This document shows, in pieces, positions 1 to 59,414 of a stretch of 59,414 nt of DNA. The stretch comes from Raillietiella orientalis (lineage: Eukaryota), in contig JAYWIR010000154.1 of assembly GCA_036172245.1 (NCBI GenBank), positions 1 through 59,414 of the forward strand, written 5' to 3'. Below the pieces are notes generated by a model. The model was not told where the DNA came from, did not search any database, and saw only the letters and a program-made list of their open reading frames with translations. A program made the translations under genes and the position numbers. Positions within the stretch are counted from its first letter, which is position 1, and every line of letters begins with the position of its first letter.

Positions 1-2868
1 CCACGTGCTCCTGGCGGGACACTCCAGAGTGGTCCGCAGTGTGCAGCGGGCGTTGGGGCCGAATCGCAGGCGGTTCCAGTCCAGGGAAGTCTGGAGGTTC
101 AGCTTGGCCCACGTCGCAACGGATTCCAGCAGCCAGGCGGAGAAGTTGGCGGGGCTGCATACCGTCCAGCCCTTGTCTCTCACCAGGGCTTCCATGCGCC
201 CACGGAGAAGGCCGCATCTTCTGACCTTCCTTCTAGAGCACAGAAGGTACGACGCTGGTCCTTGCGTCCTGGACACACGGCTGGCGAGGATTCGGGCCGG
301 AAGGCACCAAGGGGTGCTCCATGACTTTGCTGCGATGGCGAGGGTGCGCCATCGCAGCTGTATGTCCAGGCGCTCCAGCGTCAGGAGGCCGAGACCGCCG
401 TCCCGAGGAGGAGCGCATAAGTCATCTAGAGGCACACGTGGCCTCCCGCTGCCCCAGAGGGCGATGCGGTGTAGGTCCTTGGTCCTCTTTTTAACATCAC
501 GGGGAACGGGGCACACAAAAAGCAGGGGGCGGAGGATGGGAGCCGCGAAGGCGTTCCACACGGCGGCCCGTTCCGGCAGAAGGAACTTGCCTTCCAGGAA
601 CGGGCCCATTGCCAACTCTACCTTCTGGAGACGAACTGACCAGGCTTCTGCGAGGCAGAAGTCCCCCAACGGGACACCCAGGTACTTCAGGTACCTGGCC
701 GTGGAGATCCCCAAGCGGATCCAGTCAGGCCGTCCGACCCATGTCGCACCCACCGGTACGACCGACGACTTCGCCTTGTTTACCCGCAGTCCAGTCCCAC
801 GACTTAGCACGTCGAAGAAATCCTCCACTGCGGCTGCCGGTGCGGACATGGGCAACATGAGCAGAAGATCGTCGGCGTATGCTGCAACGGCAAGCGTGCC
901 GGGGCACGAGCTGGGCAGGGCAGCCAAAGTCACCCTGTACGCTCTCAGCACCAACTCAAAGTAGGTGCTGAAGAGCAGGGGACTGAGGCTATCGGCCTGC
1001 CGTATGCCTCGCCGCATTGGCACGCCGTACACCTGTTGGCTGGAAAAGACGATGTTCACAATGGCATTGCGCCAGCATGAGCGCAGGTAGGAGAGAAGGG
1101 AGGGTGGGAAGCCCATGCGACCCAGGAGCTTCAACAGTAGCTCCTGGTCTACGCAGTCGAACGCCTTGTGGAGATCGACCGCGATCGCTAGGGCTCCCTT
1201 CCCAGCCCGGGTATCCATTCCCAGCCCAGCTGGCGGTCCCAAAGTGGGGTTGCCAATTTTTCCCCCTGTGTCGTTCAGGCAGCGCTGCACATGGAACCAT
1301 GTGCTCGCGAAGAACACGTTGGCATCCATACTTTGCCCGGGAACAGCGTACTTCTGCTCCGGGCTAATTATGGAGTCTGCCACCTGTCCTAGACGCGAAG
1401 CCCACAGTCCAGCGATCAGCTTGGCGTCCGTATTCACGATTGTGATCGGACGCCAATTGCCCAAGGATCTCAGGTCTCCTCCCTTCGGGAGGAACCTCAC
1501 ACGGGCTGACCGAAACGAGGCGGGAACGTCGCCTTCGTCTCGGATCAGCCCGGTCAACTGAAGCACCAGGGGTGCCAGCTCTGCCGCGAAACATTGAAAG
1601 AATTCCGCAGGCAAACCGTCCTCCCCTGGTACCTTTCGCCTCTTGAGCCTTTGAATACCGGCGAGAATTTCACCGGTAGAAAAAGGCTCATCGAAGCTGA
1701 TCTTCTCCTCCTCCCCTATTTCCGGCGCTCCATCCGGGAGCAGGAGCCGCGAGGCGTTCCGCTCTGGGGGTGCCCTAGCGTAGAGGGAGGAGTAGTAACG
1801 TCGCACGAGGTGCCTGTTCGCGGGTGCGCCGGATCGCTCCCGGCCCTGGTCGTCCAGGAAGCTGGCCGACCCGGATTGCCAGGCTTGGCGTTCGGCCCCG
1901 GCTCGATATTCCGCTAGGCGACGGACATTCGGGGTCCTCTCGCACCTGCGGGCCTGTAGATAAGCCCGATGGTTCCGAGCTCCCTCCCCGAATCCGGGGG
2001 GCAGGCGGTGCAGGGGAAACTCCTCGCAGAACTCGCGGACCGAGGCCTTGAAGAGGTACCAGTCTTGGAGACTGCGGAGGGTGACGCCTCTCAGGAATTC
2101 GCGAAGGTGTTCTTTCGCACCTGAGAGCAGCGTCCAGTTCCCAGGCAGCCGCCACGCCCTGGACGGGGGTCCTTTGTCGCGCGGGCAAACCTCGGCGATG
2201 ATCCTGGAATGGTCCGACAGCGTCGACGCAACTTTTCCCCGTTTGCCGACCCGTGAGCACAGGTCGACATCCACGAAGAAGTGGTCGATGCTGCGGTCCA
2301 TTCCCTCCGCGTCTGCCAACAAGTTGAGCGTGCGCATGGCAGCGCACAACTCGTTGGCCGTGCGTTCTTGTGCTTCGTGCTCACCTGACAGCAGACGGAG
2401 ATTGAAGTCTCCAGCTATCATCTGTGCCTTCCGCACATTCGCGTCGGCCAGCTAATCGCGCTTCAGGGTTTCCAGCAGCCTGGTACGGTCGCTGTATCCC
2501 CCTTTTCCGCTCGGGGCGTACACGTTCGTGACGATCAATTCGATCGAGTCGCACCAGCTGAGAATCAGCTGACCGACCCGACCGTCGTCATCAAAGCGTA
2601 CGCCCTTCACGGCACCGTCCATGGCCGGCTTGACGAAGAACGCGACCCCGCAGTTGTTGCGGGCGCCGCATCGCCAATACAGTCGACCCCCCGCGATCGT
2701 CTCGATCTCCTGGACGTCTGCCGAGGTGATCACGTGGATCTCCTGCAGCAGCGCCAGGTCGAAGTCACGCAGGGTGTCGGCCGTATCACGTCTGTTGCCG
2801 TCGTCGCGCAGCCCGTTGACGTTCCTACTGGCCACTCGGATTTGACGGCGACAGGCGAGCCCAGGTGT
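1..2868 (-). pseudogene. S1 ORF2 (APE endonuclease + RT), disrupted, runs off the window
   Basis: ORF 2452..2835 (NVNG, LQE, GVAF, NVYAP); RT motifs at about 600-1650. Confidence 0.88.
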
Positions 2869-4620
2869 TATTCCTGGGAAATCGGCTGTGCGGCGTCCGC
2901 CACCTGTTGGGGCGGGACGCTAGGTGGAGGAGGAGGGACAGGTGCCTCTAGCACCTGGCCACCCTCTTCCATCGGTGACGGAGCGTCGGGCGGTTCACCC
3001 TCAGGTGGGATCGCGCCTACCTGCTGGCCCTCCTCCATAGGGGTGGGATCCTCAGGGTCCGCGACGGCAGGAGGGATTTCGCCTCCCTGCTCACCCTCCT
3101 CCATGGGAGTGTCCTGCTCGACGGCTTCCGCTCGTGGGAGCTCCCCCTCCGGGATTCCCACGCTACCGGCGACTTCCTGCTTCTCCTCCTCGCTTGTGGA
3201 GGGGAGGTGCTTCCTCGACTTTTGGGACTTGTGTCCCGTCTTCCGGGGGGGTGCCTCCGAGGAGGAGGATGCACTTCCGGCCCCCAGGTCGCACTCACCT
3301 GCGGGGGCCTTCTTCGGCGGAGCCGGCCTTCGCACGGCCTTGCTAGAGGGGTTCTCACGCTCAGCCAGCGTAACCGCGAGCTCCTCCGCCGCCTTCACGA
3401 AGGCGGCGTCCTCGCCGGCGGCGAGCGCGTCGCGCGTGTCACCCTCTGTGCAAACAGAGGGTTCGCCGTCGCGAATCTCGGGCGCGGCGGAAACGGCAAG
3501 GGGAGGCTCGTCGCACCGGGTGGCAGCCTCGGGAACGCTGATGCGCTCCAGTGCTACCGAGCACTCGCATGGAGTTTTAGATCGCGGACCAGGTTTTTTC
3601 GCCTTCGCGACCGACTTTTTCTCCGCCTTCTCTTGTGAACCCTTTTTGGGTTCTTTTCTGGCCTTTCCGAGCGTCCATCCTTCTTCCTCGCCCGCGTCTT
3701 TCGCGGTTTTTTCCGCTCCCGCCTGATTTGGAGGAGGAGGAGAAGGCTGCTGGGGCCGGCAATTCTCGCGATGAGGTCTTTCGACCTTATTCATCTTTAT
3801 CACCTGTGCCTTTTTGGCAGCAAGTGGCACAGGGGTGGGGCGTTTAGAGCACACACGACGGACGTGTCCCTTTTCTTCGCACAAGTGGCACTCGATATTC
3901 GGGCACCGCCTGCGCACATGCCCTACTGCATTGCAGTAGCCACAATCGAGGGGGCTTCCCCACGTACCAGAGGTCGACGGGCTCCTTCCCGACCTCCAGT
4001 TTGTGGGGTAACCCAGCACCCTCGTTCACAGTGACACGCGCTGCTGCCTGGCCACCAAAGAGGCTGTTATAGCCGTCAAAAATGGTTGGCTTTGGCCACA
4101 GCGCGTGCACATCTCCGTATTTTTTCAATTCCGCGTCCACCGCAGAGCGCGTCATGCGTTTCGTGATCCCCGTTAGATGGACCACTACGGAGCGGTCCAT
4201 GCTAACGGGTAGGATCTTTCGGCCAGCCACATTCAGCGGGGTGTTTATGAGGCGCTGCTCTAGGGCTACGTCTTTGCAGACGACCTCCACGCGTTGCCCC
4301 CCGCTGAGTACGGCGAGGCCGTCAAGATCCTCCTCACGCACGGGGAATTCCTGTAGTGCCTTGCTAAAGGCACGCGCGGTGCGACCGTCGAACATGTTTC
4401 CTACCTTATGAACCAGGGATGGTTTATATCCGGAGGCCCTGTAGGCCGCTTGCTCAGCCAAGGTTATCGCGCTCTGCGCGGCGACCATGGCGCTCCAGCT
4501 CCTCGTCTTGGGCGACGAGGGCGATTCCGGGACGGATGCTTCTGATTCTGTAGGTCGTGGGGGGGGGCTAGCCTCCCTTACGCCTACCTCCATCGTAATG
4601 TCCTCTGGCAGCGATGCCAT
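2868..4620 (-). pseudogene. S1 ORF1 (RRM-like, two CCHC knuckles, acidic/Pro tail), frameshift near 3955
   Basis: ORFs 3844..4704 (MASLPEDITMEVG...WYVGKP) and 2868..4019 (CGYCNAVGHVRRRC, CHLCEEKGHVRRVC ... PISQE*). Confidence 0.88.
2935..3125 (-). repeat. Three ~66-bp (22-aa) coding repeats (PMEEG...) in the ORF1 tail; also at ~47410-47590 and ~52150-52260
   Basis: TPMEEGEQGGEIPP / TPMEEGQQVGAIPP / SPMEEGGQVLEAP. Confidence 0.7.
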
Positions 4621-4696
4621 CGGACAACAACGATGTGAAAAAGCACACACTGAACCAAAAAAAACCGCTTTCCGCTGCTCGTTCGCAAAGCGCCGG

Positions 4697-4716
4697 AAAA
4701 ACACGTCCGCTCTCGA
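4697..4716 (-). promoter_or_regulatory. Conserved 5'-terminal motif (GAGAGC)GGAYG(TGTTTT), candidate internal promoter element
   Basis: Also at ~11100-11114(-), 19851-19861(-), 41685-41699(-), 45852-45863(+), each about 75-90 nt upstream of an ORF1 ATG. Confidence 0.55.
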
Positions 4717-4721
4717 GGAGA

Positions 4722-7625
4722 GGGATTTGGGGAGGGGTCGCGTAACGAAAGGTGCTATTTTCAGGCCCGACGTTACGCGAGAACCCTTGACATGCGCAGG
4801 TTAGCAGAGTATCGAGCGGGAGCCGAGAGGCAAGCCTGGCAATCCGAGTCGGCCAGCATGTTGGACGACCAGGGCCGGGAGCACTCAGTTCCCGCTCAGA
4901 AACCTGGATAGTGAGTAAATTTTACTCCTCCCTGTACGCCAGGGCGCCTCCGGAGCAGGATGTCTCACGACTGCTGCTTCCGGAAGGTGCTCCAGCAATT
5001 GGGGAGGAGGAGAAAAGAAGCCTTGACCAGCCTTTTACGATGGACGAGATCCTCTCGTCCATTGGAAAGCTCAAGAGGCGGAAGGCTCCAGGGGAGGACG
5101 GCCTGCCCGCGGAGTTTTACCAAACTTTCGCGGCTGAGCTTACCACCCTGGTACAGCAACTCACCTTGCTGATTCGCGAAACAGGTGACGTTCCCACCTC
5201 GTTTCGTTCAGCAAAGGTGCGGCTCCTCCCTAAGGGAGGAGACCTTAGGAGCATGAACAACTGGCGTCCCATCACAATAGTGAATGCGGAAGCCAAGTTG
5301 CTAGCCAAGCTGTGGCAGAGCGCCTGGCACGGGTCGCAAACATCTTCATCAGCTCGGAACAGACATATGCTGTTCCCGGGCGAAGTATGGAGGCCAACCT
5401 GTTCCACACTTCCACATGGTTAGAGCTCTAACAAGGAAGGAGCATAATAAGCAACCGGAATTCCGGTGCGTCCGTCGGTGGGGGACGAGATGGTCAGAGG
5501 GGAGAGGAGCCCTCGTGGTCGCAGTCGATTTGCATAAAGCATTCGATTGCGTCGACCAGAATCTCCTTTTGGAGCTTCTGGAACGCTTGGGATTCCCGGC
5601 CTCTTTGCTGGCCTACATGCGCTTCAGCTGGCGCGACACGCTCATTGATGTTTTTTTTAGTGGATCCACCGTGTACGGCGTACCTGTGCGCGCGGCATAC
5701 GGCAGGGAGACAGCCTCAGCCCCTTGCTCTTCAGCGCCTATTTCGAATTGGTGCTGAGAGCGTACAGGGAGACTCTGGCGCACCTGCCGTGCGATTGTCC
5801 CGGTACGCCTTCAATTTCGGCGTACGCGGACGACCTTCTGCTGCTGCTGCCTATATCCACCCCGGCTGCGGCGGTCAAGGAGTTCTTCGACCTGCTGAGT
5901 CGGGGAACAGGACTGACGGTGAACAGGGCGAAGTCGTCCGTAATGCCAGTCGGAGCGGCGTGGGCAGGGCAGCAGGATTGGGTCCGTTTGGGGATCCCCA
6001 CGGTGAGGTACTTCAAGTAACTGGGTGTGCCGTTGGGGGACTACTCCCCTGCGGAAGCGTGGTCGGGCTGCCTTCAGAAGTCTCAGGCGGCGATCGGCCC
6101 GTTCCAGGACGGCAGGTGCTACCTGCAGAAACGGGCCGCGGCGTGAAACGCGTTTGCGGCCTCCCTCCTTCGCCCCTTGCTTTTTGTTTGTTCCCCCTTA
6201 GCGGAGTCAAAGAAGAGGACGAAGGACCTCCTGAGGATGGCCCATTGGGACAGAGGGCGGCCCCGAGTCCGTCTTTCGGACTTGTGCGCTCCTCTTCGGG
6301 ATAGTGGTCTGGGCCTCCTGACGTTGGAGCGGCTGGAGCTACAGCTCCAGTTCCGAGTTGTTGCCTTTATGGCAGAAAATTGGTGCACTCTTGGTGCCTC
6401 CCTGCACATCTTCTCTTCGAGCGGGCCAATGGCAATGCGGGACTGTCGTCCTACTTTGCACTCCGAAGCCCCATCTGCCACTGCTGACTTCATCTTCGGA
6501 GGGCGGCCAAGCTCGTGAAGAACAACTCGGCGCGGATTCTCGTACGCTTCGCGAACGGTCCTGCCTGGTTGCAGGAAACCGTCCGTACGTGGGCGATGAT
6601 TCAGGAGCAGAGCCCGCAACACGAGCGAACAGCTCTGTTTGGGCCGCATGCCCACCGCACGCTCCGAGAAATCGAGTATCCCCGAAGGAGAGCGTTGGCA
6701 CAAAAAAACTCCCTTGCTGCGGTACTGCCTACCCTACGATGACATCTGGGCAGCGACGTCACGGCACAATGGGAGGTTACTGTCAAGATCGCCAGCAGGG
6801 CAAAGAAGATCGGGGATTGGAGAACGGATCAGCTCACCAACGATGCTACCCCGAGGACCACCCCAAATGGACTGTCGCGCTGGGAAGAGCTACTGGATCT
6901 TCCAGAGGAACATCTCGAGTGGCCCCCGGTGCTCATGGACTCGCGCACCCTCCCCATGAAGTGGGAACAGTCGGCACTGCTGGTGTTGAATTTGGGGCTT
7001 CCTTGCAACGCCCGCCGACACCACTGCACGCGGGGGGCTGTCAACCCTAATTGTGTCAGGTGCGGGGAGAGGGAATACCTCCCCCACCTGTTAGTGGATT
7101 GGGTTGCCCTCCGTCCCTTGTGGAAACGCTTTGCCGCAGCCCTGGGGATCCCCGAAGGCAACCCCAGAGACACCTTGCGCCCCCTTTTCGTCCGTGACGC
7201 CCTGCCTCCAGTGGCCTCGCTTGCAGCCCTGTGCTGCCTACGCGGGATCGTCGTGGCATGGAGCAAAGCGACGGGAGGATCCAGCGACAGGGATGCCAAC
7301 GTGTATGCCGCCCGTTTCCTCAGGATGGCGACGCGATGGCACCACCTGTAACCACACACGCAGAAACAGCTTGCCGGCATCCTCCAGAGTATGACGGACC
7401 CTCCCAGGAGACTGTGATCCCTTCTCGCTTCCTCCCTGATATTTGTGTATGTTTTGTTTTGTTTTTGTTTCGTTTTCCCTCTTCTCTGCTGCCGAGGTGG
7501 ACCGCGCCGGTCTGCGCACCGGTAGCCCGGAAAGCTATACCTTTCCAGGGCGTCGCTGGACTACTGGTCCAGTCACAGATTGTATAGGTTTATCCGTGAG
7601 AATAAACGTCCCGGCGCACCCGGGT
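4722..7625 (+). mobile_element. S2: 3' part of an element (ORF2 linker, RT, CCHC, 3'UTR, intact 3' end)
   Basis: Starts GFGEGSRNER; KAPGEDG, WRPIT, DLHKAFD, YADD (~5823), CVRCGEREYLPHLLVD; stop ~7415; AATAAA plus hairpin 7601-7625. Confidence 0.92.
7601..7625 (+). terminator. Conserved 3'-terminal AATAAA plus hairpin (one of nine copies)
   Basis: Consensus AATAAACGCCCCGG-N5-CCGGGTG; also 7978-8003(-), 15879-15904(+), 21942-21967(+), 36669-36694(-), 42947-42972(-), 47851-47876(-), 49914-49939(-), 54702-54727(-). Confidence 0.8.
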
Positions 7626-7629
7626 TTCA

Positions 7630-7975
7630 ATGGAGATTCCGGAGCGTGACGCCTCTCAGGTATTCGCGAAGGTGTGCTTTCGCACCTGAGAGTCGCGTCC
7701 AGTCCCCCGGCAGAAGCCAATCACTGGATGGCGGTCCTTTGTCGCGAGGCCGCATCTCGAAAATTAACCAGGAATGGTCCGACAACGTCGACGAAACCCT
7801 CCCCCGTTTGCCGAACCGTAAACGCAGGTCAGCGTCAAGGAAGACGTGGTCGATGCTGCGGACCATACCCCTCTCACCCTCGAACAAGTTGCGCGCACGC
7901 ATAACGGCGCACAACTCGTTCATCGCGTTCTCTTGTGTTTCTGGCTCACCTGTTAGCAGACAGAGATTGAAATTT
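7630..7975 (-). mobile_element. S3: endonuclease fragment (FN...IDHVF...SDH...RGVTLRNL)
   Basis: ORF 7627..7980; paralogous to 54365-54700. Confidence 0.88.
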
Positions 7976-10735
7976 ATCACCCGGACACGCCGGGGCGTTT
8001 ATTAATAATAATAAACTGGTCAGGGCAATGTCTCCAACAAACAGAACGACAGAGAACATAGAAAAATCACCGTCACGCAGGCCTGGTAAACAAACCGCTT
8101 TTAGCGTGGAGGGAATGAGGTGAAACAAACAAAAATCAAAAAGTGGAGGGAAGGGTAACGGGTTTTTGGTTAGGCTCCGTACTCACGGGGATTTAAACGA
8201 TGAGCACCTGAAATGTTTTGGAGCCTATGAAGACGCGGGTGTAAAAAGAAAATACGAAATTAGTTTATGGAGGGTAGGGCAATGATCACCGGGTTGGCCG
8301 CAGCTGAGGGTGTGTAAACCGGCGGTGTATTGCGACGAGATTCCTTTTTGTCTCCTCTGTCAAATAAAACCATCTAGCGAATGCTCCCATGTAGAAGGAT
8401 GCTTTGCTGATTACCTCTTGGTGCTGTCCGTTGATTACCAACGCCTGGCGGACGGAAACTATCGCGCGTATGCAACCGATGGTTGCAATCCTTGCGCTTA
8501 GTGACATCCCGCTCGGCGTGAAGAATCGTCGCAGCAAGTCTCCTGCGGTGTCCACGGATTGCATAAGTGCTGTTGCCATCCTACGACACAGTCCTTGTAG
8601 GACAACGCAGTCCAGAAGTAGGTGCGGAATCGACTCCGTCGATCCGCCCCGAACGCAGTTCGCAGACGCAAGTCCCCCGGAGTCACGATGCCCACGCTCG
8701 TTGCACTGAAAACCCCAGTGAACGAAAAGCAGCATGGCTTGTTTGCAAGCAAGGGGGAACAGCGAACTGTCAATACACTGTAAAGGAACTACAAGTTCTT
8801 CGGGGGTGACAGCAAGTTGTTCTGCCCACCGGAGGAGTCCCTGTGCAGTAACACGAGGAGTGGCGGCGTCCGCCAACTCACTCGTCTTCTAGGCGCCAAG
8901 GATTGTGGTTTTTCCCGCTATCGTGCAGGAAACCTCTTACCTCGCCGGTTGGTAACTGTCGTTTCTTGCCCAAGGTGCAGACAGCGCTGCGGCAAGAGGC
9001 GTGGCAGATAGGGTAGAAAACTTCACCTCGTCCTGCAGTTCTTCTTCCAAAGATCTTGGAAAAAATTGGCTCAGGGGGCGAAGATCTTCAGAGGGTATTT
9101 CTTGGAACGCCGCTTAGGATTCAACAGACTCCGGCCGCCAAGCTTCAAAGTTCATTGGGCGGCAGGACATCCACGAGTGTGCTTCCAGAAGTGCGGTCAA
9201 CTGCCGCAATGGAAACACGAAACCCCGCTTCCTGTATCGAGTGCCCGGCAAAAGCAAGAGAAATCGTCCGCTGCCGGCGCAACTCCGCAGAAGGAATGCG
9301 GGCTGGCACACACAGGGGGGATGTCCATAGCTGGCCACACAGTGCCAGCAGTCGGAACTGTACCTGCAGTCCGATTCGCTCCATTGTCAAGATACCCAAA
9401 CCAGCATCCCGACGCGGAGCTAACAAATCTTTAAGGCGGATCCTGGATCTCGCCGGACCCCAGAGAGCGTTCCTAAGCAGGCGTTTAGCCCGCTGTTTTG
9501 CGTCCTAGGAGAAGTTCAAAACAAAGAAGAGGGGACGGAGGAGGGGGGCAACAAAGGTGCTCCAAATAGTCCTCCGTACCTGCAAGGTAAACTTGCCGTT
9601 AATGAACGGGCTGACGGCCAACTCTGCTTTCTGGAGACAGTCCTACCACGCTTCGGCTGCGCCTAAAGCGCCTAACGGAACGCCAAGGCACTTAAAGTAC
9701 CCGCCCGTGGGGATCCGCAGGCGGATCCAGTCGGACTGCCCCTCCCACGACGTACCCACAGGAACGACCACGCTCTTCTCTCTGTTCACGCTCACGCCCG
9801 CTCCTCGACGAATCAGGTCGAATAAATCCTCGACAATGGACGCCGTTGTGGACATGGGTAGCAGAAGAAGCAGGTCATCAGCGTAGGCGGCCACGGCAGG
9901 CGTTCCCGGGCAGGGACTTGGCAAGTGAGACAGCGTCAGCCTGCATGCTCTTAGCACCAACTCAAAGAAGATGCTGCAGAGCAACGTGCTTAAGCTGTCG
10001 CCCTGTCGGATGCCCCTACGAACGGAAATACCATACACGCGGCACCCGCTGAAAGTAATGCAGGATAGCGCGTGGCGTCAGCACGCGCGCAAATACAGCA
10101 GGAGTTGCGCCGGGAACCCAAGGCGTTCCATAAGCTCCAAAAGCAGCTTCTGGTTTACGCAGTCGAACGCCTTGTATAGATCGACTGCGACCGCCAAGGC
10201 ACCTGGCATTCCCTCTTGCCGTCGGCGCCTGTTCTTCTTGCCTGCGGCAGTAACTTTCGCAGCAGCCTGGATTTGCTGAGCCACAACTTCCTGCAGCTGC
10301 ATCCATGTACGCGCGAAAAGGATGTTCGCCTCCATGGATCGTCCCGGAACCGCGTAGGTTTGTTCCGGGCTCACCACAGATTTCGCGATACTTCCTAACC
10401 GCGCGACCCACAGCTTGGAAAACAACTTGACGTCCAAGTTCACCAAGGTGATCGGACGCCAGTTGTTAAGTTGTTGCAAGTCTCCGCCTTTCGGCAGGAG
10501 ACGCACCTTTGCTGAGCGGAAGGAATCCGGGACATTCCCGGATTCACTCATCAGCGTCGCGAGTTTCAGCATCAAGGGAATGAGCTCCACTGCAAAGGAC
10601 TGATAAAACTTTGCAGGGAGCCCATCCTCACCTGGCGCCTTTCGTCTCTTCAGCCCAGCGATTGCATACGGAAATTCATCCGCCGTGAAGGGCTCGTTGA
10701 GACGTTCGCGTTCCTTTTCGCCGACAACACCAGCT
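7976..10735 (-). mobile_element. S4: 3' part of a subfamily C element (RT, CCHC, 3'UTR, intact 3' end)
   Basis: ORFs 10078..10590 (WRPIT, DLYKAFD), 9643..10038 (RQGD, YADD), 8286..8876; terminal motif 7978-8003. Confidence 0.92.
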
Positions 10736-11117
10736 CCTCTTTTTGTACACCGAGAACGCGCATGGCCTGCGAGAAGGCGCGCGCGTTCTCGGGAGAATAT
10801 AGACCGCCTACCTTATATAGAAGGGGTGGGTTATACCCCTCCTTCAGGTAAGCGCGCATTTCCGCCATAGCCGCTGGCGTAGGTGCCGCAGCCACGGCGT
10901 TCCAAGTCCTGGGTAGGGCCGGGGGCGCATCCGTGCTGGCGGGAGCCTTCATTGATGCGGGAGCTCCCACCTCCATCTCCTCCGGGGCAATGAGGTCATC
11001 GCCCCCGGATCCTCACCGGTGGTGGTATCAGGCATTGCTGCCTAATCCTCCACCCACACCACGCACACGCACCAACGAAAATGAAACTCAGGAGCAACGA
11101 AAAGACACGTCCGCGAG
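10736..11117 (-). mobile_element. S5: 5'UTR and ORF1 N-terminus fused to the S4 linker
   Basis: GCGGACGTGTCTTTT at ~11100-11114; ATG 11035 (MPDTTT...MEVG...TWNAVAA...GYNPPLLYKVG). Confidence 0.82.
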
Positions 11118-12785: not shown

Positions 12786-13344
12786 GTTACCTAGAATTGG
12801 GGCTGGAGAAACAGGAAGGAAAAGCTCGCCCTAGAGCAACAGGCCCGCTCGGCGGTAGTGAGCGCTGAGCTCAGCAGGACGCACGGAAGAGGCGTGCCGG
12901 GGCAAACAGCGCCTCAACCGTCAAGGGGAGCGGCAACCTGGCAGCGGCATGTTCCGATGGGGGATCAGGGACCAAGCAGCGCATCCAGAAACTGGGAATT
13001 CCAATGCTGGGTGGTCGATCGTAGTGACTTCGAAGCTCACTCCACTTGGCACGCCAAGTACAACTCTGGAGGGGGGAAAAGGGAGAAAAGCGCATCACGG
13101 ACTTCCGTCGAGGAGCTTCCTCGGGGGGAAGGTTAGCTCCCGAGGGGTCGCCGTGCGTGCGAGGAGAGATTCGTCGAGATGTTCCTATAATGGTTTGTTG
13201 GCCAACTGAAGAGACTCTTCAAGGGAAACGAGGGAAGGCACAAAGCGAAGCATGGAATGCGGAGAGACCGCTGGCCGTGGCGGCCCACAGACGACCGGGG
13301 GAATCGCCGGGGCAGCTCGGCCGACCGGAACTACTTCCAGATGA

Positions 13345-15905: not shown

Positions 15906-15909
15906 GAAC

Positions 15910-19870: not shown

Positions 19871-19871
19871 C

Positions 19872-22912: not shown

Positions 22913-22914
22913 GA

Positions 22915-27622: not shown

Positions 27623-27635
27623 GAAAGGGGAACAT

Positions 27636-41699: not shown

Positions 41700-41793
41700 T
41701 TGGACTGGGACGATCTGAAAAGATCAGTCCACGAGTTCTGAAGCTGCTTCCCCTTGCGCCTGCTTCCCTGTGGCTCGGGGCAGGCGTGGCCAA
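41700..41793 (+). mobile_element. S16': resumption of S16 ORF2 after the S17 insertion
   Basis: Translates LDWDDLKRSVHEF*SCFPLRLLPCGSG, matching S9 ADWDHLKRSVPEFCDRFPLHLLPRSSG. Confidence 0.8.
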
Positions 41794-41795
41794 CA

Positions 41796-49880: not shown

Positions 49881-49910
49881 CACCTGTCAAGGGACAGGTG
49901 AGGCGGACGT

Positions 49911-50560
49911 TTTCACACGGTGAAGCCGGGGCTTTTATTTGAAAACTAACAGTATTTGCGGTACAAGGCCCCGGTGCGGCCAATAGTGCTATGGAACTGT
50001 CTGGTTGTCAGTGCACAGACCGACATAACACTCCACGTCAACGGATGGGGTTAGGGAAAAAATAAAAATAAAAATAAAAAGTAGAAACACTGGTCATTGG
50101 GAGGGCCGGGAAGTGATCATTGTGCGTTTTGTTTAGCTTCCATCCTTTGCAGGATGCCGACTTGGTCCTTCTGCAGATTTCCCAGGTGGAGCCATCAGGA
50201 TGCCATTCGCAGAAAGCGAGCTGCATGCTCAACGGCATTCCTTCTGTTAGCATCCTCCGCTTCGTCGGATCCACTCCAAGCTGCCAGAATAGCGCGTACG
50301 CAGCAGAGAGCTGCTATAACAGCGGCTGAGCTGCAGGGCGTCCCGCAAGAAGAGGAGCCGAAAAACGTCTCTACGAAGACTACCGTCCAGGATCCCTAAG
50401 ATGAAACCGACACGCTCCCACAGGGGCCGGAGGGCAGCACACTCAACCAGAAGGTGCGAGAGGGTTTCCCGCTCCCCGCACCGGGAACAGTTTGCGTTCA
50501 CACTTCCCCGTGTCGCTATAGGGAGCAGACGTGATTTGGCATCGCTCCACGGACTGGTTA
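49911..50560 (-). mobile_element. S22: CCHC region, 3'UTR and intact 3' end
   Basis: NCSRCGERETLSHLLVEC; terminal motif 49914-49939. Confidence 0.87.
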
Positions 50561-50564
50561 GTGG

Positions 50565-53185
50565 GAAGCTTTTCGTTGGTTGTCTGGTGTATGGAAGCAC
50601 CAATGTCCCATGGATGAAATGCCTGAGGACATCGCGATGGAAGTTGAAGGAGGAGAAGCGACATGCTTTCCGACACCAATAAAAGTGGGGGCATCCGCTC
50701 CCACGGAATCCGGGGAACGTGCCCCATCGGAATCGGGAGCAATCCCCCCTTCGCGACCCTCTTCGCCATTGGCAAGGAGTTGGAGTGACGTCGTTGCTGC
50801 ACCATCCCCGGATGCAGTAGCGGAGCAGACTGCCTACAAGGACAGCGGCTACAAGCCGTCTCTGATCTATAAGGTAGGCAGTGTGTTTGATGAAAAAATT
50901 GCACGCTCCTTCGAAATGGAGCTGCAAAGGTTGAACGTGAGGGAGGAAGACCTTGAAGGCCTATCCCTCCTTAGTGGAGGCCAGCGAGTTGAGCTGACAT
51001 GCAAAGAGGCAAGTCTGGCTCAGCGACTGCTGAACACCCCTCTTACGGTGGACGGCCGCAGGATCTTCCCTGTGACGGAGGACCGCTCTGTCATGGTCCA
51101 CCTCACGGGCGTATCACTCCGAATGGACAAAACCAGAGTCCATGAGGAGTTGTCGATGCATAGTAGTGTGCACGTGTATTTGGCCAAACCCAATGTCTTC
51201 CGAACGTACGGAAGGCTATTCAGTGGGATGGCCGCAGCCGGCGTCAACCTACCAGAGAATGGTGAACTTCCCACAAATTGAATATCGGCGAAGAAAAAGT
51301 CGATGTTTGGTACGTGGGTAATTCCAACTATTGTGGCCATTGCGATGCTACAGGGCATCTAAGAAAGCGGTGCCCTAACATCCAATGCCACTTATGTGGA
51401 AATAAGGGCCACATCCGTAAGGTGTGCCCAAGGAGAGAAATCCCGTCCCCATTTGCTGCCAAAAAGGCAAAGGGGAAACGCACGGGAGAGACGCATACAC
51501 AGAAACAAGCTGTAAACACCCAGATGACAGTCACTAAGCCCCCACAGCAAACGTCGGTTGAGAACACTCCCGACGACGCTGATGACGGCGAAGGCTGGCA
51601 GACGGTACAGCCACGAAGAAAACCCGGGAGTCCCGAACGGAACGCGGTGAAAACAAAAACACAGCGTAAAAAACCGTGCCGCGAAAAGCTCCGCGCGTGT
51701 TTGGTAAAATTAGAAGGTGTGGAGGCAACCGATGTTGCCACCGGGGGAGCATTCTCCCCCCTCACGTCCGCCAAAGCAGCGACGGTCGATGGTGAACCCT
51801 CTGGCGAATCACAGGGGGAACCGCGCGCCGCGCTGGACGCGATCGAGGAGGCCGGCTCCCAGCAGGCGGTGGGAGAACTCACGGCTGAACTGCAAGGCCG
51901 TGAAAAGAACTCGCGAAAGGCGTTGCGAAGGCCGGTCGCGAGGAAGGCTCCGGAGGTAGGTGAGGCCGATCCGGACGTCGAAATTGCGTCCTCTTTAGCG
52001 GAGTCGCCACCAAAGAAGACGGGACGTAACTCTCAGAATCCCAGAAGGCGCATCCGGATCAATAAGGAGACGGAGGAACCATCCCCCGAGGAAGAAGCCG
52101 GCAGCGTGGGAGGCAAGGGTGGGAATATCTGATTCCCCGACACCGTGCAGCTAGCGACTTCCATGGAGGAGGATGCGCAGGTGGGTGAACTACTACTTCC
52201 TCTGCAAGGCCCCGACGACGAATCGTCCTCCATGGAGGAGGGAGAAGCGGTGCGCGACACACCCCCTTCTCCTAGCGTCCCGCTTGACAAGGTGGCAGGA
52301 GCCCCATTGCCAATTTCCCAGGATTAACACCTGGACTCGTCTGTCGCCGTAGGATACGCGTAGCCTGCTGGAACGCCAACGGGCTGCGCGATGATGGCAA
52401 CAGGCGGGACACGGCCGACACCCCGCGTGACTTCGACCTGGCCCTCCCGCAGGAGATCCATGTGATCACCGCAAGGAATGCCCAGGAGATCGAGAGGGGG
52501 GTCGTCTGTTTTGGCAATGCGGCTCTTGCAACACCTGTGACGTCGCGTTTTTTATGAACCCAGCAATCGCTTCCTTCTTCCAGGACAGTCGGGTTGGCCA
52601 GCTTATCCTTAGGTGGTCCGACTCGATCGACCTTGTCGTGACTAATGTGTGCGCTACGAGCGGAGGACGCGGGTACGGTGAACGTTCCCGGTTCCTCGGA
52701 ACCCTGAAGCGCGAATGGCCGGCGGATAGAAACGTACGCAAGGCACATCTTATCGGTGGGGATTTCAACATCCGCCTGCTCTCAAATGTGCCTTGCAGGC
52801 AAAAAGACGCAAACAACGAGTTGTGCGCCGCTATGCGTACGCGCAATTTGCTGGGGGACTTTCCGGAAATGGCCCAAAGCGTAGATCACGTCTTCCTTGA
52901 CGCCGACCTGTGCTTAAGGGTCCGCAGACTAGGCAAACTTACGTCGAAGCTATCGGACCACTACTGGCTGATAAGCGAGATTATGCCACGCGACAATCGA
53001 CCACTATCCAGGGTGTGGCGTATGCCAGGGGACTGGACGCATATCTCAGGTGCGGCGGAACATCTCCGTCAGTTCCTGAGAGGCGTCATCCTTTGCAACC
53101 TCGAAGGTTGGGACCACATGAAGGTCTCGGTCCGCGAGTTCAGCGAGGATTTTCCTTTGCACCGCCTGCCACGGGGATTTGGAGT
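50565..53185 (+). mobile_element. S23: ORF1 (50610-52327) and ORF2 EN up to GFG
   Basis: ORFs 50580..51281, 51278..52132 (CGHCDATGHLRKRC, CHLCGNKGHIRKVC), 52554..53297 (GGDFN, VDH, SDH). Confidence 0.92.
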
Positions 53186-53196
53186 TGTAACCAGGG

Positions 53197-54699
53197 TACC
53201 TTCCAGGAACGGGCGGATCGCCGTCTCGACTTTTTGGAGGCAGCTGCACCACGCTTCCGCTGCGGAAAAGTCCCCCAACGGCACACCAAGGTACTAAATG
53301 CACCTCGCAGTGGGGATCCCCAAACGGACCCAGTCCTGCTGCCCTGCCCACGCCGCACCAACTGGCACCACCGACGACTTCGCCCTGTTCACCGTAAGTC
53401 CGGACCCGCGGCTGAGCAGGTCGAAGAAATCTCCGACCGCCTTTGCCGGGGTGGACATTGGCAACAAGAGCAGAAGATCGTCGGCATAAACACTTACGGC
53501 GAGTGTGCCGCGGCATGAGCTGGCGGCCCCAATGTTGGGTTGCCGATTTTCCCTTCCCTTTCTTCTCTCTTCTCTGAGAATGCATCCAAGTGCTTGCGAA
53601 GAAGAGGTTGGCGTCCATACTTCGCCCGGTAACAGCATAGGTCTGCTCCGGGCTAGTTGTGGACTCTGCCACCTGCCCCAAACGCGAAGCCCATAGCCCT
53701 GCTAGCAACTTGGCGTCCGTGTTCACGATCGTGATCGGACGAAAGTTGTTCAATTACCTGAGGTTTCCCTCTTTCGGGAGGAGCCTCACTCTGGATGAAC
53801 GAAAAGAGGCGGGAACATCGCCTTCGTCTCGGATCAGCCTTGTCAACACGAGCACCACGGGGGCCAGATCTTGCGCGAAGCACTGAAAAAACTCCGCAGG
53901 CAAGCGGTCCTCTCCTAGCGCCTTAAGCCTCTTGATCCTTTTGATATCGGCGAGAAATTCTCAGAGAGTGAAAGGCTCGTCGAGGCTTACCGACTCCTCT
54001 TCCCCTATTGCGAGGGCACCATCCGGGAGCAAGCGCCAAGAGGCATCTTGGTCCGAAGGCGTCCTGACTTAGAGGGATGAATAAAATCTCCGCAGGAGAT
54101 GCCGTTATGACGCCGGAAACGAACATTCCCGGCCCTGGTCGTACAGCAAGCTGGCCGACCCGGATTGCTAGGCTTGGCGTTCGGCCCCAGCGCGGTACTC
54201 GGCCAAGCAACGCACATTAGGGGTTCTCTCGTAACGACGGGCCTCTAAATAGGCTCTATGGTTGTGAGGACCCTCGCCAAATCCGGGGGGCAGGCGATCC
54301 AGGGGGAACTGTTCGCAGAGCTCCCGGACCTAGGCCTCAAAAAGGAACCAATCCGAGAGACGCTGGAGCGTGACGCCTCTCAGAAATTTGCGAAGGTGTT
54401 CCTTCGCACCTTAGAGTCGCGTCCAGTCCCCCGGCAGACGCCAATATCTGGATGGCGGTCTTTTGTCGCGACGCCGCATCTCGAAAACTAACCGGGCATG
54501 GTTCAACAACCTCGACGCAACCCTCCCTCGTTTGCCGAACCGTGAAAACACGTGAACGTCGAGGTAGACGTGGTCGATGCTGCGGATTATTCCCTTCTCA
54601 CCCGCGAACAAGTTGCGCGCACGCATGGCGGCGCAAAACTCGTTCATCGCGTTCTCTTGTGTTTCAGGCTCACCTGTTAGCAGGCGGAGATTGAAATTT
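53197..54699 (-). mobile_element. S24: EN-linker-RT fragment with an internal deletion near 53520; paralog of S3
   Basis: ORF 54411..54647 (IDH), FRPIT, YADD in 53294..53638. Confidence 0.88.
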
Positions 54700-57600
54700 A
54701 TTACCCGGTCACGCCGGGGCGTTTATTAATAATAATAAACTGGTCAGGCACAAAGTCCTCAACAACAGAACGTCACGGAACATAGAAAAATTACCGGCAC
54801 GCAGGCCTGGTAAACAAACCGCTCGCAGCGTTGGAGGAATGAGGGGAAACAAACAAAAATCAAAAACTGGAGGGAAGGGTAACGGGTTTTTGGTTAGGCT
54901 CCGTACTCAAGGGGATTTATACGATGAGCACCTGAAATGTTCCGCAGCCTATGGGGACGCGGGTGTGAAAAGAAAATTCAAAATTAGTTTATGGAGGGAA
55001 GGGCAATGATCACCGGGTTGGCCGCTGCTAAGCGTGTGTAAATCGGCGGTGTATTGCGGCGAGATTCCTTTTTTTCTCCTCAGTCAAATGAGGCCATCTA
55101 GCGGATGCTCCCATGTAGAAGGATACTTTGCTGATTACCTCCTGGTGCTGTCCGTTGATTGCCAACGCCTAACGGACGGAAACTATCGCGCGTATGCATC
55201 CGATGGTTTCAATCCTTGCGCTTAGTGACAGCCCGCTCGGCGTGAAGAATCGTCGCAGGAAGTCTCTTGCGGTGTCCACGGGATGCATCAGTGCTGTTGC
55301 CAGCCTACGCCACAGTCATTGTAGGATTCCGCAGTCCAGAAGTAGGGGCGGAATCGACTCCGTGGATCCGCACCGAACTTAGTTGGCAGACGCAAGTCCC
55401 CCGGAGTCACGATGCCAACGCTCTTTGCACTGAAAACCCCAGTGAAAAAAAAGCAGCACGGCTTGTTTCCAAGCAAGGGAGAGCAGCGAACTGTTAATAC
55501 ACTGTGGAGGCACTACAAGTTCTTCGGGGGTTACAGCGAGTTCTTCTGCCCACCGGAGTAGACCCTTTGCAGTAACACGAGGAGTGGCGGCGTCCGCCAA
55601 CTCACTCGTCTTCCAGGTACCAAGGAGTTTGGTTTTTCCCGCTATCGTGCAGGAAACCTCCCGCCTCGCCGGTTTGCAATTGTCGTTTCCTGCTCTGAGG
55701 GCAGAGAGCGCTGCGGCAAGAGGCGTGGCAGCCAGGGTAGAAAACTTCACCTCGTCCTGCAGTACTTCCTCCAAGCATCGTGGAAAAAATTAGCGCAGGG
55801 GGCGAAGATCTTCAGGGCGTATTCCTTGGAACGCCGCCCAGGATTCAACAGACTTCTGCCGTCAAGCTTCAAAGTTCATTGGGCGGCAGGAGATCCACGA
55901 CTGAGCTTCCAGAAATGCGGTCATCTGCCGCAATGGAAACCCGAAACCCCGCTTCCTGTATTGAGTGCCCAGCAAAAGCGAGAGAAATCCTCTGCTGCCG
56001 GCGCAACTCCACAGGAGAATGCGGACTGGCACACACAGGTCGGATGTCCATAGCTGGGCACAGTGCCAGTAGTCGGAACTGCACCTGCAGTCCGATTCGC
56101 TCCATTGTCAGGATATTCAAACCAGCATCCCGACGCGGAGCTAACAAATCTTTAAGGCGGATCCTGGATCTCGCCGGACTCCAGAGAGCGTTGCTGATCA
56201 GGCGTTTAGCCCGCTGTTTTGCCGCATAGGGGGGATCCAAAACAAAAAACAGGGGACGGAGGAGCGGGGCCACAAAGGTGTTCCCAATAGTCGCCCGTTC
56301 CTGCAAGGTAAACTTGCCGTTAAAGAACGGGCTGATGGCCAACTCTGCTTTCTGAAGACAGTCCGCCCACGCTTCGGCTGCGCCAAAAGCGCCCAACGGA
56401 ACGCCAAGGTACTTAAAGTACACGCCCGTGGGGATCCCCAAGCGGATCCAGTCGGACTGCCCCTCCCACGACGTACCCAAAGGAACGACCACGCTCTTCT
56501 CTCTGTTCACGCTCACGCACGCTCCCCGACGAATCACTGCGAAGAAATGTTCGAAACTGGAAGCCGGAGTGGACATGGGGAGCAAAAGAAGCAGGTCATC
56601 AGCGTAGGCGGCCACAGCAAACGTTCCCGGGCAGGAGCTTGGCAAATGAGACAGGGTCAGCCTGTATGCTCTAAGCACCAACTCAAAGAAGATGCTGAAG
56701 AGCAACGGGCTTAAGCTGTCGCCCTGTCGGATGCCCCTACGCACAGGAATACCATACACGCGGCCGCCGCTGAAAGTGATGCAGGTTAGCGTGTGGCGCC
56801 AGCACGCGCGCAAATACAGCAGGAGTTGCGCCGGAAACCCAAGGCGTTACATAAGCTCCAAAAGCAGCTTCTGGTTTACGCAGTCAAACCCCTTGTGAAA
56901 ATCGACCGCGACCGCCAAGGCACCTTTCGTTCCCTCCTGCCGTCGGCGCCTGTTCTTCTTGCCTGCGGCAGTGACTTTTGCAGCAGCCTGGCTTTGCTGC
57001 GCTACAACTTCCTAAAGCTGCATCCATGTACGCGCAAAAAGGATGTTCGCCTCCATGGATCGTCCGGGAACCGCGTAGGTTTGCTCCGGACTCACCACAA
57101 ATTCCGCGATACTTCCTAACCGCGCGACCTACATCTTGGAAAACAACTTGACGTCCGAGTTCACCAAGGTGATCGGACACCAGTTGTTAAGTTGACGCAA
57201 GTCTCCGCCTTTCGGCAGGAGACGCACCTGTGCTGAGCGGAAGGAATCCGGGACATTCCCGGATTCACTCATCAGCGTCGCGAGTCTCCCCGCCTTTCGT
57301 CTCTTCAGCCCAGCGATGGCGGTCGAAAATTCATCCGCCGTGAAGGGCTCGTTGAGACGTTCGCGTTCCTCCTCGCCGACAACACGAGCATCCTGAGACA
57401 GGAGTATCTCCGAGAGAATATCCTCCTTCGGGGATTCGGCGTAGGGCGAGGAATATTTGCGTCTCACAATGCGGCGTACGTCGGCTGGGGCCGAACATTC
57501 CTGGCCCTTGTCGTCAACAGGCATGCTGCTCCGGACTGCCAGAACTGTCGCTCGGTTCTTGCCTTGTACTCCGCGAGACGCTTGACATCCGCGCGTCTCG

Positions 57601-58720
57601 GAAACGTGCGGGCCTGCAGAAAGTCTCTACTGTTGGCCACGCTCTCTCCGAAAGCCCGTCGACGCCGGTGCAAGGGGAATTGGCAGCAGAACTCGCGGAC
57701 AGATCTTGTGAGATCGTTTCGGTCCGCAAGTTCTTGAATGGCAAAGCCTCGGAGGTGTGCACATGGATGCTTCTGAGCCTTTGGTTGGCTAAGCCAATCC
57801 GCCTGCATCCTCCAGTTTTGCAGCGGAGGCTTTCTTGCTGGCGGAAGGATCTCAAACTTCAACCTGTGGTGGTCAGAAAGCCTAGTCAACAATCTTCCTC
57901 TCCTACCCACACGCGAATTCAGGCTTTCATCGAGGAAAACGTGATCGAGCGATCTTTCCATTCCAGGTTCGCTGACCATCAAGTTGGCGGCGTGCACGGA
58001 CGCGCACATCTCGATGGGCAGCGCGCGCTCCCTCGGGCGGCTCCAATCGTCGGAGAGCAGGTGGACGTTGAAGACCCAAGCGACGAGGTGCGCCACTTAA
58101 AAGCCGGAGTTGTTGAGCCAGTGGTTCTGCACCTCACCAAAGAAAGCTACTTTTTCTTCGAGGTAGCGAGAGCCACACGGTGCGTAAACGTTCGTAACGA
58201 CGAGATCGATGGACTCGGACCACTTGATGACAAGCTGGCCTATCCGTCCGTCGTCATCGAAACGAACACTACGCACCGCTTCCGCCATTTTTCCTCTTAC
58301 GAGGAACGCGACGCCGCACGTGTGTGCGCCGCCGCACCGCCAATGTAGCGTTCCGCCTGCGCGCTCCTCGATTTCGGCTGCCTGCTCGTCAGAGATTACG
58401 TGAATCTCCTGCAGGAGCGCGAGGTCGAAGGGGCGCAGGGCGTTAACTACTAATCGCCTCTTCTCGTCGTTCTGTAGGCCGTTTACGTTCCAACACGTTA
58501 CGGACAGACGACGAGAAGACGCGATTCCCCGCATTACGGCTGGGAAGGTGGCGGCTTTTTGCTCGCTTTATCCGGCGAGCAGAGGCTAGCAGCACGACTG
58601 GCTGGAGGGGACGGTCGCCACCGTCCTCTGTCGCGCTGCATGCTTGTAATGCCTCCACGCCGGGCTGGACCCCGTCGGGTTCCGGGCTTCCACACTTTCA
58701 ACAACTAGTCTTGCCTCCGC
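54700..58720 (-). mobile_element. S25: subfamily C element with ORF1 tail, whole degenerate ORF2 (58534 to ~55010), 3'UTR and intact 3' end; paralog of S4
   Basis: ORFs 58097..58534 (CWNVNG, NVYAP), 57464..58096 (LDH, SDH), 55869..56813 (RQGD, YADD, KYLG); terminal motif 54702-54727. Confidence 0.93.
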
Positions 58721-58739
58721 TCACATGAGCTGACCAAAA

Positions 58740-59414
58740 ACGCGTGCGGCACCGTCGTAGGTTTGCCGCATTCTGCGGGATTTTTATTCCTCCCTTTACG
58801 CGCTGAGACTACCAGAGCGCTCCTCTGCCCAGCGCCTGCTGCCAAAGGGTGCTCCCGCATTGAGGGAGGAAGAAATAAACACCTTCCTTTAAGAGTTCTC
58901 GATGGCGGAGATAATCTCCGCCATCACTAAATTGAAAAAAAACAAAGCACCAGGGGAAGACGGCCTTCCAGCTGAATTCTACCAACACTTCGCGGCAGAG
59001 CTGGCACCCATGGTGCTAAAACTGTGTATGCTGATCCGTGAACGTGGGGATGTCCCCAACTCGTTCCGGTCAACTGGAGTACGTCTCCTTTTTAAGGGAG
59101 GAGACTTGCGCAACGTTGGCAACTGGCGTCCCATCACTGTAGTGAATGCAGACGCAAAGTTGCTTGCCAAACTGTGAGCTGAGCGCCTGGGACGGGTTGC
59201 GGACTCCGTGGTCAGTCCGGAACAGACATACGCTGTTCCCGCACGAACCATGGAGACCGACCTGTTCCTCGCCAGCACATTCTGGCAGTTGCAAATGCAA
59301 GGCGCATCTACGTCGGGAAAGTCTTGGACTCTCCTTTGAAAAAGGTGAGGGAAGTCGGGAAGAAGATGCGGCGCCTGGAGCCCTTGCGATCGCAGTCGAT
59401 TTGCGTAAAGCTTT
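58740..59414 (+). mobile_element. S26: ORF2 linker and N-terminal RT fragment, runs off the window
   Basis: KAPGEDGLPAEFY, WRPIT, VDLRKA at the window end. Confidence 0.9.

Follow-up and report, generated by a model that had tools for sequence, protein, structure and literature searches.

What builds a stretch of DNA in which long interspersed nuclear elements (LINEs) lie inside one another and leave room for hardly anything else? The question is raised by contig JAYWIR010000154.1 of the Raillietiella orientalis assembly GCA_036172245.1, whose positions 1 to 59,414 are called the window here, and in which about 24 element pieces were mapped (labelled with E, F, H1 and B in Table 1). We put the probability at about 0.7 that the window is a LINE-only island which arose by repeated target-primed reverse transcription of several diverged L1-type LINE families into the second open reading frame (ORF2) of sibling elements. 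The junctions have the pattern of this process, with exact 3' ends and with 5' ends that are either complete or truncated; the 5' junction offsets are 0 nt, +17 or +11 nt, or -73 or -91 nt of host sequence. The best reading of this pattern is a mutual, sequence-directed targeting by several subfamilies, which acts like the target specificity of Tx1-type elements.

Composition of the window

Homology to LINE ORF1 and ORF2 proteins (hidden Markov model, tblastn and phmmer searches) accounts for 87.8% of the window, and for 95.4% when nucleotide repeats within the window are added. In a self-comparison, 86% of the window has at least one further copy in it, mostly at 64-90% identity. The leftover gaps of at least 100 bp are mostly 3' untranslated regions (UTRs) with a hairpin end, 5' UTRs, the UTRs of the element B and the decayed ORF1 of the element H1; the two stretches without any assignment (12778-13352 and 58651-58763) together make up about 0.7 kb, or about 1.2% of the window. 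Among 228 stop-to-stop ORFs with a length of 110 aa or more, scanned in two batches of 150 and 78, the only Pfam families above or near the cut-off were RVT_1, Exo_endo_phos, zf-RVT and zf-CCHC, and zf-C2H2_10 and Phage_Mu_Gp48 gave one match each, far below it. No tRNA gene and no Rfam family was detected in the 59,414 bp, and no long terminal repeat (LTR) element, DNA transposon, satellite or gene was seen by the tandem-repeat, tRNA, Pfam and Rfam scans of the 59 kb, in which the tandem repeats number three only, all of them short and coding. A sequence-only reading of this stretch had proposed that it consists of LINEs alone, which these searches bear out. Its estimate that about 99% belongs to one group can be kept only if the UTRs are assigned by position, and membership in L1/Tx1 is not demonstrated for B, which constitutes 19% of the window.

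The GC content is 50-63% in steps of 2 kb. The ratio of observed to expected CpG is 0.97 over the whole window (TpA, 0.58) and thus gives no sign of methylation-driven CpG decay. The longer unassigned stretch lies between the stop codon of E4 and the 5'-truncated E5, has neither similarity within the window nor a Pfam match, and contains an open frame running from 13191 on into E5.

Element ends

Nine 3' ends fit the pattern AATAAACGCCCCGGCGnnnCCGGGTGA (chance expectation 0.00), in which AATAAA is followed by a 5-bp hairpin (CCGG/CCGG) and a TGAWAA-like tail about 6 nt long, and six 5' starts fit GAGCGGACGTGTTTTn6GCT (chance expectation 0.02). All 15 motif-bearing ends adjoin the ORF2 of another LINE, and the B dimer has its two outer ends within the ORF1 of H1. 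The earlier claim that every intact end abuts another member of the group thus holds for all of these ends, as does its count of nine 3' ends and of the two ends of the B dimer; the 5' ends number six and not five. With ORF2 making up 72% of the non-B DNA, the probability that 15 of 15 ends fall into it by chance is 0.72^15 = 0.007.

Host homology begins about 6 nt past the hairpin in eight of the nine 3' ends, which suggests a defined 3' end of the RNA. None of the nine hairpin ends carries poly(A), so that the poly(A) or simple-repeat tail of the L1 group is missing here. The 3' terminus is common to these elements despite an identity of only 43-67% in their 3' regions (90% for the duplicates E3 and E22), and it may be a recognition element for the reverse transcriptase; covariation was found in none of the five hairpin pairs. 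The 26 nt upstream of the 5' motif of E1 were considered as part of this element and excluded, because they are host sequence of E2 (GFGEG codons).

Recurrent insertion sites in ORF2

ORF2 has a length of about 1,210 aa, with residue numbers based on E1 (window positions 2919 to 1, minus strand) and E5 (E5 residue + 382). Its motifs include LLQEIH (aa 57-62), GDFN (170-173), SLQDW (282-286), LPPGFGEG (306-313), SSLY (377-380), DLHKAFD (582-588), YADD (681-684) and a C-terminal HW..G..CxxC zinc motif (about 1079-1092), whose HW...CxxC codons are kept across copies.

At the site used most clearly (site 1), compared in a host-sense alignment of 12 copies, the junctions between the E2 tail and F (7630|7631) and between the E12 tail and H1 (36664|36665) fall into one alignment column within the Q284 codon, with an uncertainty of up to about 4 nt due to microhomology. 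F ends with ...GGAATCTCCA before the E2 tail and H1 with ...GGGAGTTTGA before the E12 tail, and both inserts are antisense. The inserts E2 and E12 are 68.7% identical and the hosts F and H1 only 49.8%, which shows that the two junctions are not copies of one event. On the far side of E12, H1 restarts at 41702 with GGACTGGGACGATC (D285 W286 ...; GGACTGGG), and the rejoined host has the same length as its intact relative E6 (18/18 nt); E12 was thus inserted without duplication or loss of host sequence. The GA(C/T)TGG half of the site is kept in nearly all of 10 host copies compared. Three other antisense 5' junctions are found nearby, that of E3b in E4 being located 17 nt upstream, that of E1 in E2 (G309) at +73 and that of E16 in E15 (R315) at +91. 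E1 and E16 are 82.8% identical, their hosts 70.9%, and their 5' junctions are 18 nt apart, which indicates two independent events.

A second site is located just before the C-terminal CxxC. Here E14 ends with ...CACTGGACGCGGGGAAG (...CGGGGAAG|) and is followed by the E15 tail in antisense; E18 starts with ACACGGGGAAG... and is preceded by the 5' end of E19, also in antisense and 11 nt upstream of the column of the E15 tail. In addition, the tails of E3 and E22 are located in the D codon of GDFN in sense, and the KAFD motif holds the E18 tail (D588-V590, sense) and the 5' end of E7 (H584/K585, antisense). Of 16 insertion events inferred altogether, 12 have the antisense orientation. If insertion were uniform, two 3' junctions would coincide within 4 nt with a probability of P = 0.026-0.034, and at least three of seven further 5' junctions would fall into a 110-nt interval in the right orientation with one of P = 3e-5 to 1e-4. 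Taken together, the coincident 3' junctions, the two-sided E12 insertion, the clustered 5' junctions and the pair at site 2 indicate that the nesting is more than crowding. Sequence-specific insertion into a repeated target, a trait of the Tx1 clade, is thus seen at sites 1 and 2 and in the two-sided E12. Of the proposed mutually targeting lineage of several subfamilies, the targeting part is supported by the shared columns at both sites; the poly(A) tail expected for a Zepp-type element is lacking. The dedicated chromosomal domain (centromere, subtelomere or cluster of the Piwi-interacting RNA type) that the sequence-only reading also put forward would be a hypothetical role of the island.

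A possible mechanism can be outlined from these junctions. The apurinic/apyrimidinic (APE) endonuclease of the E2/E12 family would nick the sense strand of the host at a sequence resembling CTCCA|AGACTGG (Q284/D285, 'QDW'), and an element of this type would then enter in antisense, with the precise 3' and variable 5' junction that target-primed reverse transcription predicts. Other families appear to have sites of their own, namely HWTxG before the zinc CxxC, GDFN in the endonuclease, KAFD in the reverse transcriptase, and SSLY. Because functional siblings must keep these codons, landing pads would always be on hand and host genes would be spared; each insertion would break a competitor, and the island would grow as a nest. 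The element map, the junctions and their coincidence at sites are observed; the causal role of endonuclease specificity, the restriction of a family to one site and any advantage for the elements are our inference. A guild of hyperparasitic LINEs in the full sense would comprise six or more diverged L1-type families, each equipped with an endonuclease that is adapted to a site of its own, exact to the nucleotide, in sibling-invariant codons (GDFN, KAFD, the QDW/LPxGFGEG linker, SSLY, HWTxG), inserting mostly backward into ORF2, disabling rivals, sparing host genes and building LINE-only domains by themselves; we regard this extended proposal as tentative, with odds somewhat short of even.

Nesting of the elements

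H1 consists of three collinear pieces (Table 1), and its DNA sequence shares 66% identity with the 5' part of E22. The first two pieces are split by the B dimer, the second and third by E12. From the zinc knuckle to the start of ORF2 H1 measures about 1,020 nt over both B flanks, compared with about 950 nt in E16, and the B flanks thus fit one ORF1. The two nests named in the sequence-only reading, the B dimer and a second insert (now E12) within one host (now H1), both reconstruct exactly. Joining the second piece of H1 (E11) with E14 as one host was rejected: E14 is 82.6% identical to E1, with which the endonuclease region of H1 shares only 56 nt, and since 41702-41795 is the real continuation of H1, E14 is not joined to that piece. 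E12 as two elements fused at 37693 was also excluded, because the pile-up of alignment ends at this position is a conservation boundary of six other copies; both halves are, in addition, closest to E2.

The B dimer (23979-35219, minus strand) is arranged head to tail, its copies are 90.4% identical, and AGTCGG is present at all three junctions, the two outer ones and the inner one. The copies differ by nine indels, none of them a multiple of 3, and have several ORF-ending stops in common, including an in-frame TGA in the reverse transcriptase, which indicates that the dimer descends from one already dead copy and makes two independent insertions of active copies unlikely. Read on one strand, the differences between the copies comprise 175 A/G and 85 C/T changes.

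To the right, H1 is cut at N316 by E14, E14 at the zinc motif by E15, E15 by E16, E16 by E17 (E18 lies directly upstream of the latter) and E18 by E19. To the left, H1 lies within E9, which also holds E8, and E8 in turn holds E7. The nest is thus at least seven levels deep (E9 > H1 > E14 > E15 > E16 > E17/E18 > E19), and the lost right-hand halves of the hosts would be located past the end of the window.

Weighing the explanations

Several observations weigh against repeated targeted insertion. Five junctions are of the deletion type (within E4, between E6 and E7, E19 and E20, and E3 and E3b, and at the deletions inside E12 and E20/E21), so that rearrangement is frequent. E3 with F (7631-10738) and E22 with E21 (54355-57394) represent one duplicated event. 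The 5' junctions at G309 and R315 may mark a neighbouring site of their own in LPxGFGEG instead of site 1, and the 110-nt interval was chosen after the data had been seen, which makes its P value optimistic. The number of junctions per site is small (two exact 3' junctions at site 1, one 3' and one 5' junction at site 2), and no target motif is common to the sites. E8, E15 and E18, which are 62-67% identical in their 3' regions, lie at three different sites, and 'one family, one site' is therefore not demonstrated. Finally, three of the nine tail junctions are in sense and could be head-to-tail joins that arose by template jumping instead of targeted nicks.

The window could be a passive graveyard in gene-poor heterochromatin or in a trap resembling a Piwi-interacting RNA cluster, in which nesting follows from LINE density and the coincidences from chance or hot spots. 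The elements are indeed old and decayed, with 50-90% pairwise identity and many stops, deletion-type junctions are common, and LINE DNA could be abundant enough for nesting by chance. We nevertheless consider a graveyard unlikely, because no LTR element, DNA transposon, satellite or gene is visible in the 59 kb, and because of the exact coincidence at site 1 with the clean two-sided E12 insertion there, the clustering of antisense 5' junctions near this site (P = 1e-4 or less) and the location of every one of the 15 motif-bearing ends in ORF2 (P about 0.007).

Copying of nested blocks at the DNA level, by segmental duplication, unequal crossing-over or gene conversion, did occur. The duplicated block of 3.1 kb comprises the 3' part of an element together with its host flank, shares the junction of tail and GDFN, and is similarly conserved in flank (87.5%) and insert (90.4%; 87.5-93% along its length), so that two separate insertions of E3 and E22 were dropped in favour of one duplicated event; one copy of the block was later invaded by E2 at site 1. 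The common in-frame stops of the B copies, with their one dead ancestor, are of the same kind. As a general substitute for independent insertions, however, block copying is improbable, even more so than a graveyard: the hosts at site 1 belong to families that cannot be aligned (49.8%, with inserts at 68.7%), the hosts of E1 and E16 are far more diverged than the inserts and their 5' junctions lie 18 nt apart, and the two junctions at site 2 differ in type as well as in host. Least probable of all is a misjoining of contigs through similar repeats at some junctions; the region is built of repeats with 70-90% identity, but the junctions are located at termini with conserved end motifs and not within shared homology, H1 regains its exact frame once E12 is taken out, and copies with 90% identity or less are too diverged for typical misjoins. 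Targeted insertion, accompanied by duplication and deletion, thus remains the preferred explanation. As to the deletions, the junction of E19 and E20 (53183|53198) was excluded as an insertion into LPxGFG, because the elements converge on it with 14 nt of filler between them (53184-53197); the filler is an end-joining deletion scar.

Affinity of the elements

Exo_endo_phos matches are located at 2455-2919(-) and 58100-58567(-), RVT_1 was found in 14 ORFs, and the zf-RVT match (PF13966) in E5 reached 27.3 bits (cut-off 27.5). An APE-type endonuclease followed by a reverse transcriptase is collinear in E1, E12 and E22, as in ORF2 of the L1 group. The best relative of ORF2 in the PDB is human LINE-1 ORF2p (E = 3e-37), followed by R2 proteins at 7e-16 or weaker; among solved structures, and short of a phylogeny, the main families thus appear nearer to L1 ORF2p than to other LINE clades. 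The CCHC knuckle of ORF1 is evident in B; the 458-aa ORF1 of E16 itself has no Pfam match. Based on their 3' regions, E2 and E12 (66%) form one identity group, E8, E15, E18, E14 and E4 (62-89%) a second and E3/E22, E17 and E6 (53-58%) a third, and E5 stands alone. The names 'Tx1-type' and 'Zepp-like' are meant here as functional analogies.

The nearest database protein is a 619-aa fragment from a public metagenome (P0001) with 66% identity to the reverse transcriptase of E1 (106-1860(-)), which indicates that a related organism or element family exists in environmental data. The next matches are at most 35% identical (listed range 23-35%), except for one 132-aa fragment at 70%, and the nearest named proteins, from a turtle, a pseudoscorpion and Closterium, are about 28-33% identical and uncharacterised. 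A metagenome scan for ORF2 relatives yielded seven loci with at best 35% identity over short stretches, too distant for a comparison of junctions, and a search of the Protein Atlas only generic RVT/APE clusters without usable taxa. B lacks the hairpin end, and its reverse transcriptase is 23-28% identical to those of the main families. A piece of it scores alike against R2 (1e-16) and L1 ORF2p (about 1e-15), so that B shows no closer affinity to L1; its endonuclease had no match in the PDB, and none of its 102 database matches carries a clade name.

Element map

Table 1. Elements, junctions and repeat motifs along the 59,414-bp window; aa, ORF2 residues unless ORF1 is named
Feature	Position	Strand	Content	Junctions and remarks
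E1, near full-length LINE	1..4721	-	5' motif 4689-4712; ORF1 ~4700-2871; ORF2 aa 1-973, one in-frame stop	antisense in E2; 3' part lost at window start
E2	4722..7630	+	G309 (LPPGFGEG) to end, 3' UTR, hairpin, 6-nt tail	host of E1; antisense in F at Q284 codon
F, ORF2 fragment	7631..7973	-	aa ~171-284	limits: E2 tail (site 1) and E3 tail (GDFN codons)
E3	7974..10738	-	aa 397 to end, 3' hairpin
E3b	10739..11117	-	5' motif 11093-11116, 5' UTR, ORF1 aa ~1-80	5' end adjoins E4 antisense, 17 nt upstream of site-1 nick
E4	11118..12777	+	aa ~279-422 fused to 809-end (internal deletion)	no hairpin end
No homology found	12778..13352			575 bp
E5	13353..15912	+	aa 437 to end, one in-frame stop, zf-RVT, 3' hairpin	tail adjoins E6 in sense near K249/G250
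E6	15913..18851	+	aa ~250 to end	3' UTR cut ~100 nt past stop, deletion-type junction with E7
E7	18852..19874	-	5' motif 19842-19865; ORF1 aa 1 to ~281 only	5' end adjoins E8 antisense at H584/K585 (DLHKAFD)
E8	19875..21972	+	aa 585 to end, 3' hairpin	tail adjoins E9 antisense directly after SSLY codons (Y380/A381)
E9	21973..22923	-	aa ~59-381	host to E8 (left) and H1 (right; break L58/Q59 of LLQEIH)
H1 part 1	22924..23978	+	ORF1 aa ~38 through zinc-knuckle region	5'-truncated; divergent family
B copy 1, 5.6-kb LINE	23979..29591	-	CCHC ORF1, APE endonuclease, reverse transcriptase	no poly(A); ends in CTGCCGAGTCGG
B copy 2	29592..35219	-		head to tail with copy 1
H1 part 2	35226..36664	+	rest of ORF1, ORF2 aa ~14-284	ends at site-1 column, ...GGGAGTTTGA
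E12, end-to-end element	36665..41701	-	5' motif 41670-41693, ORF1, ORF2 with internal deletion, hairpin end	antisense in H1, no host base duplicated or lost
H1 part 3	41702..41795	+	D285-N316 (DWDDLK...LPxGxG..AN)	restarts exactly at site-1 nick
E14	41796..42942	+	D703 to aa ~1084	82.6% DNA identity to E1; cut at site 2 (HWTRG codons) by E15 tail
E15	42943..45848	-	R315 to end, hairpin	antisense in E14 (site 2); host of E16
E16	45849..47841	+	5' motif; open 458-aa ORF1 stretch; ORF2 aa 1 to ~81	antisense in E15; cut by E17 tail
E17	47842..49908	-	aa ~590 to end, hairpin	tail adjoins E16 antisense at R79-F81
E18	49909..50513	-	aa ~1081 to end, hairpin	5' side cut by E19; tail adjoins E17 in sense at D588-V590 codons (KAFDCV)
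E19	50514..53183	+	5' motif 50523-50546, ORF1, ORF2 aa 1-311	5' end adjoins E18 antisense, 11 nt upstream of site-2 nick
14-nt filler	53184..53197		TTGTAACCAGGGTA	convergent junction, E19 aa 311 and E20 aa 777
E20/E21, single ORF2 fragment	53198..54697	-	aa 171-777	313-bp internal deletion
E22	54698..58650	-	ORF1 end, ORF2 aa 9 to end, hairpin	tail adjoins E21 in sense in GDFN codons
E23	58764..59414	+	from aa ~369	runs off window end; preceding 58651-58763 (113 bp) without assignment
Tandem repeat, 27-nt unit	29207-29298 and 34830-34925		coding	ORF1 of both B copies
Tandem repeat, 42-nt unit	19671-19753		coding	E7 ORF1
3' hairpin motifs	7601-7627, 15879-15905, 21942-21968	+
3' hairpin motifs	7977-8003, 36668-36694, 42946-42972, 47850-47876, 49913-49939, 54701-54727	-

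Comparison with known systems

Clusters of L1-type LINEs that nest in themselves are described for Zepp in Chlorella/Coccomyxa C-169 and ZeppL-1_cRei in Chlamydomonas (PMC8226300, PMC3446292, PMC9940879). As for these elements, insertion into existing copies has produced a LINE-only nested cluster in the window. According to those accounts, the ZeppL of Chlamydomonas is a single family, whereas the window contains at least four diverged families and the unrelated LINE B. In contrast to Zepp and ZeppL, the junctions in the window are located at exact ORF2 codons, 12 of 16 events are antisense, and six copies keep the full 5' start, so that the array does not consist mostly of 3' ends. The 3' ends of Zepp and of L1-1_CR are given as (A)n in the section cited (PMC3747384), and differ from the hairpin with its 6-nt tail; the same section lists five of 15 green-algal L1 families in which the 3' repeat is missing, so that some L1 lineages do without poly(A) (PMC3747384).

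A likeness to the Tx1 clade is the combination of an APE-type endonuclease, a place in the wider L1 group and insertion into one sequence within another repeated element, as far as the cited passages describe it (PMC4494074, PMC3747384). The targets reported there are the Tx1D piggyBac for Tx1L, Mariner-N4_AMi for Tx1-Mar, LTR retrotransposons for Tx1-8_Crp and Tx1-4_AMi, and U2 snRNA genes for Keno (PMC4494074, PMC3747384). In these descriptions, Tx1 targets are thus DNA transposons, LTR elements, RNA genes and microsatellites; in the window they are coding motifs of sibling LINEs, with families targeting each other. Cnl1 of Cryptococcus is portrayed in the text cited as a LINE which prefers insertion within itself and forms nested arrays, being a single 3.4-kb family in tandem (sense) arrangement beside telomere repeats (PMC9942834). 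The window differs from Cnl1 by its multiple families, its mostly antisense insertions, the absence of a telomere repeat within it and its junctions at fixed coding sites.

R1 and R2 target the 28S rDNA of the host, R2 with a restriction-like endonuclease. A 3' junction that is precise, a 5' junction that varies and the repeated use of one site in a conserved multicopy target resemble what is outlined for R2; in contrast to R1 and R2, the conserved multicopy target in the window is LINE ORF2 itself. In the open-access literature text we found no report of LINEs aiming at the coding motifs of another LINE. Both site specificity and self-nesting in clusters are already known for LINEs, and the window differs by sibling families that target each other, targets in ORF2 codons, a mostly antisense orientation and a hairpin end without poly(A). 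If sibling families do land on conserved coding motifs in one another, this would unite both known ideas and would clearly exemplify competition and parasitism among transposable elements. The APE endonucleases of such families would form a natural set whose differing DNA specificities can be read, and the self-assembly of LINE-only islands, like those marking centromeres in some green algae, would be explained with no need for a chromatin-reading domain.

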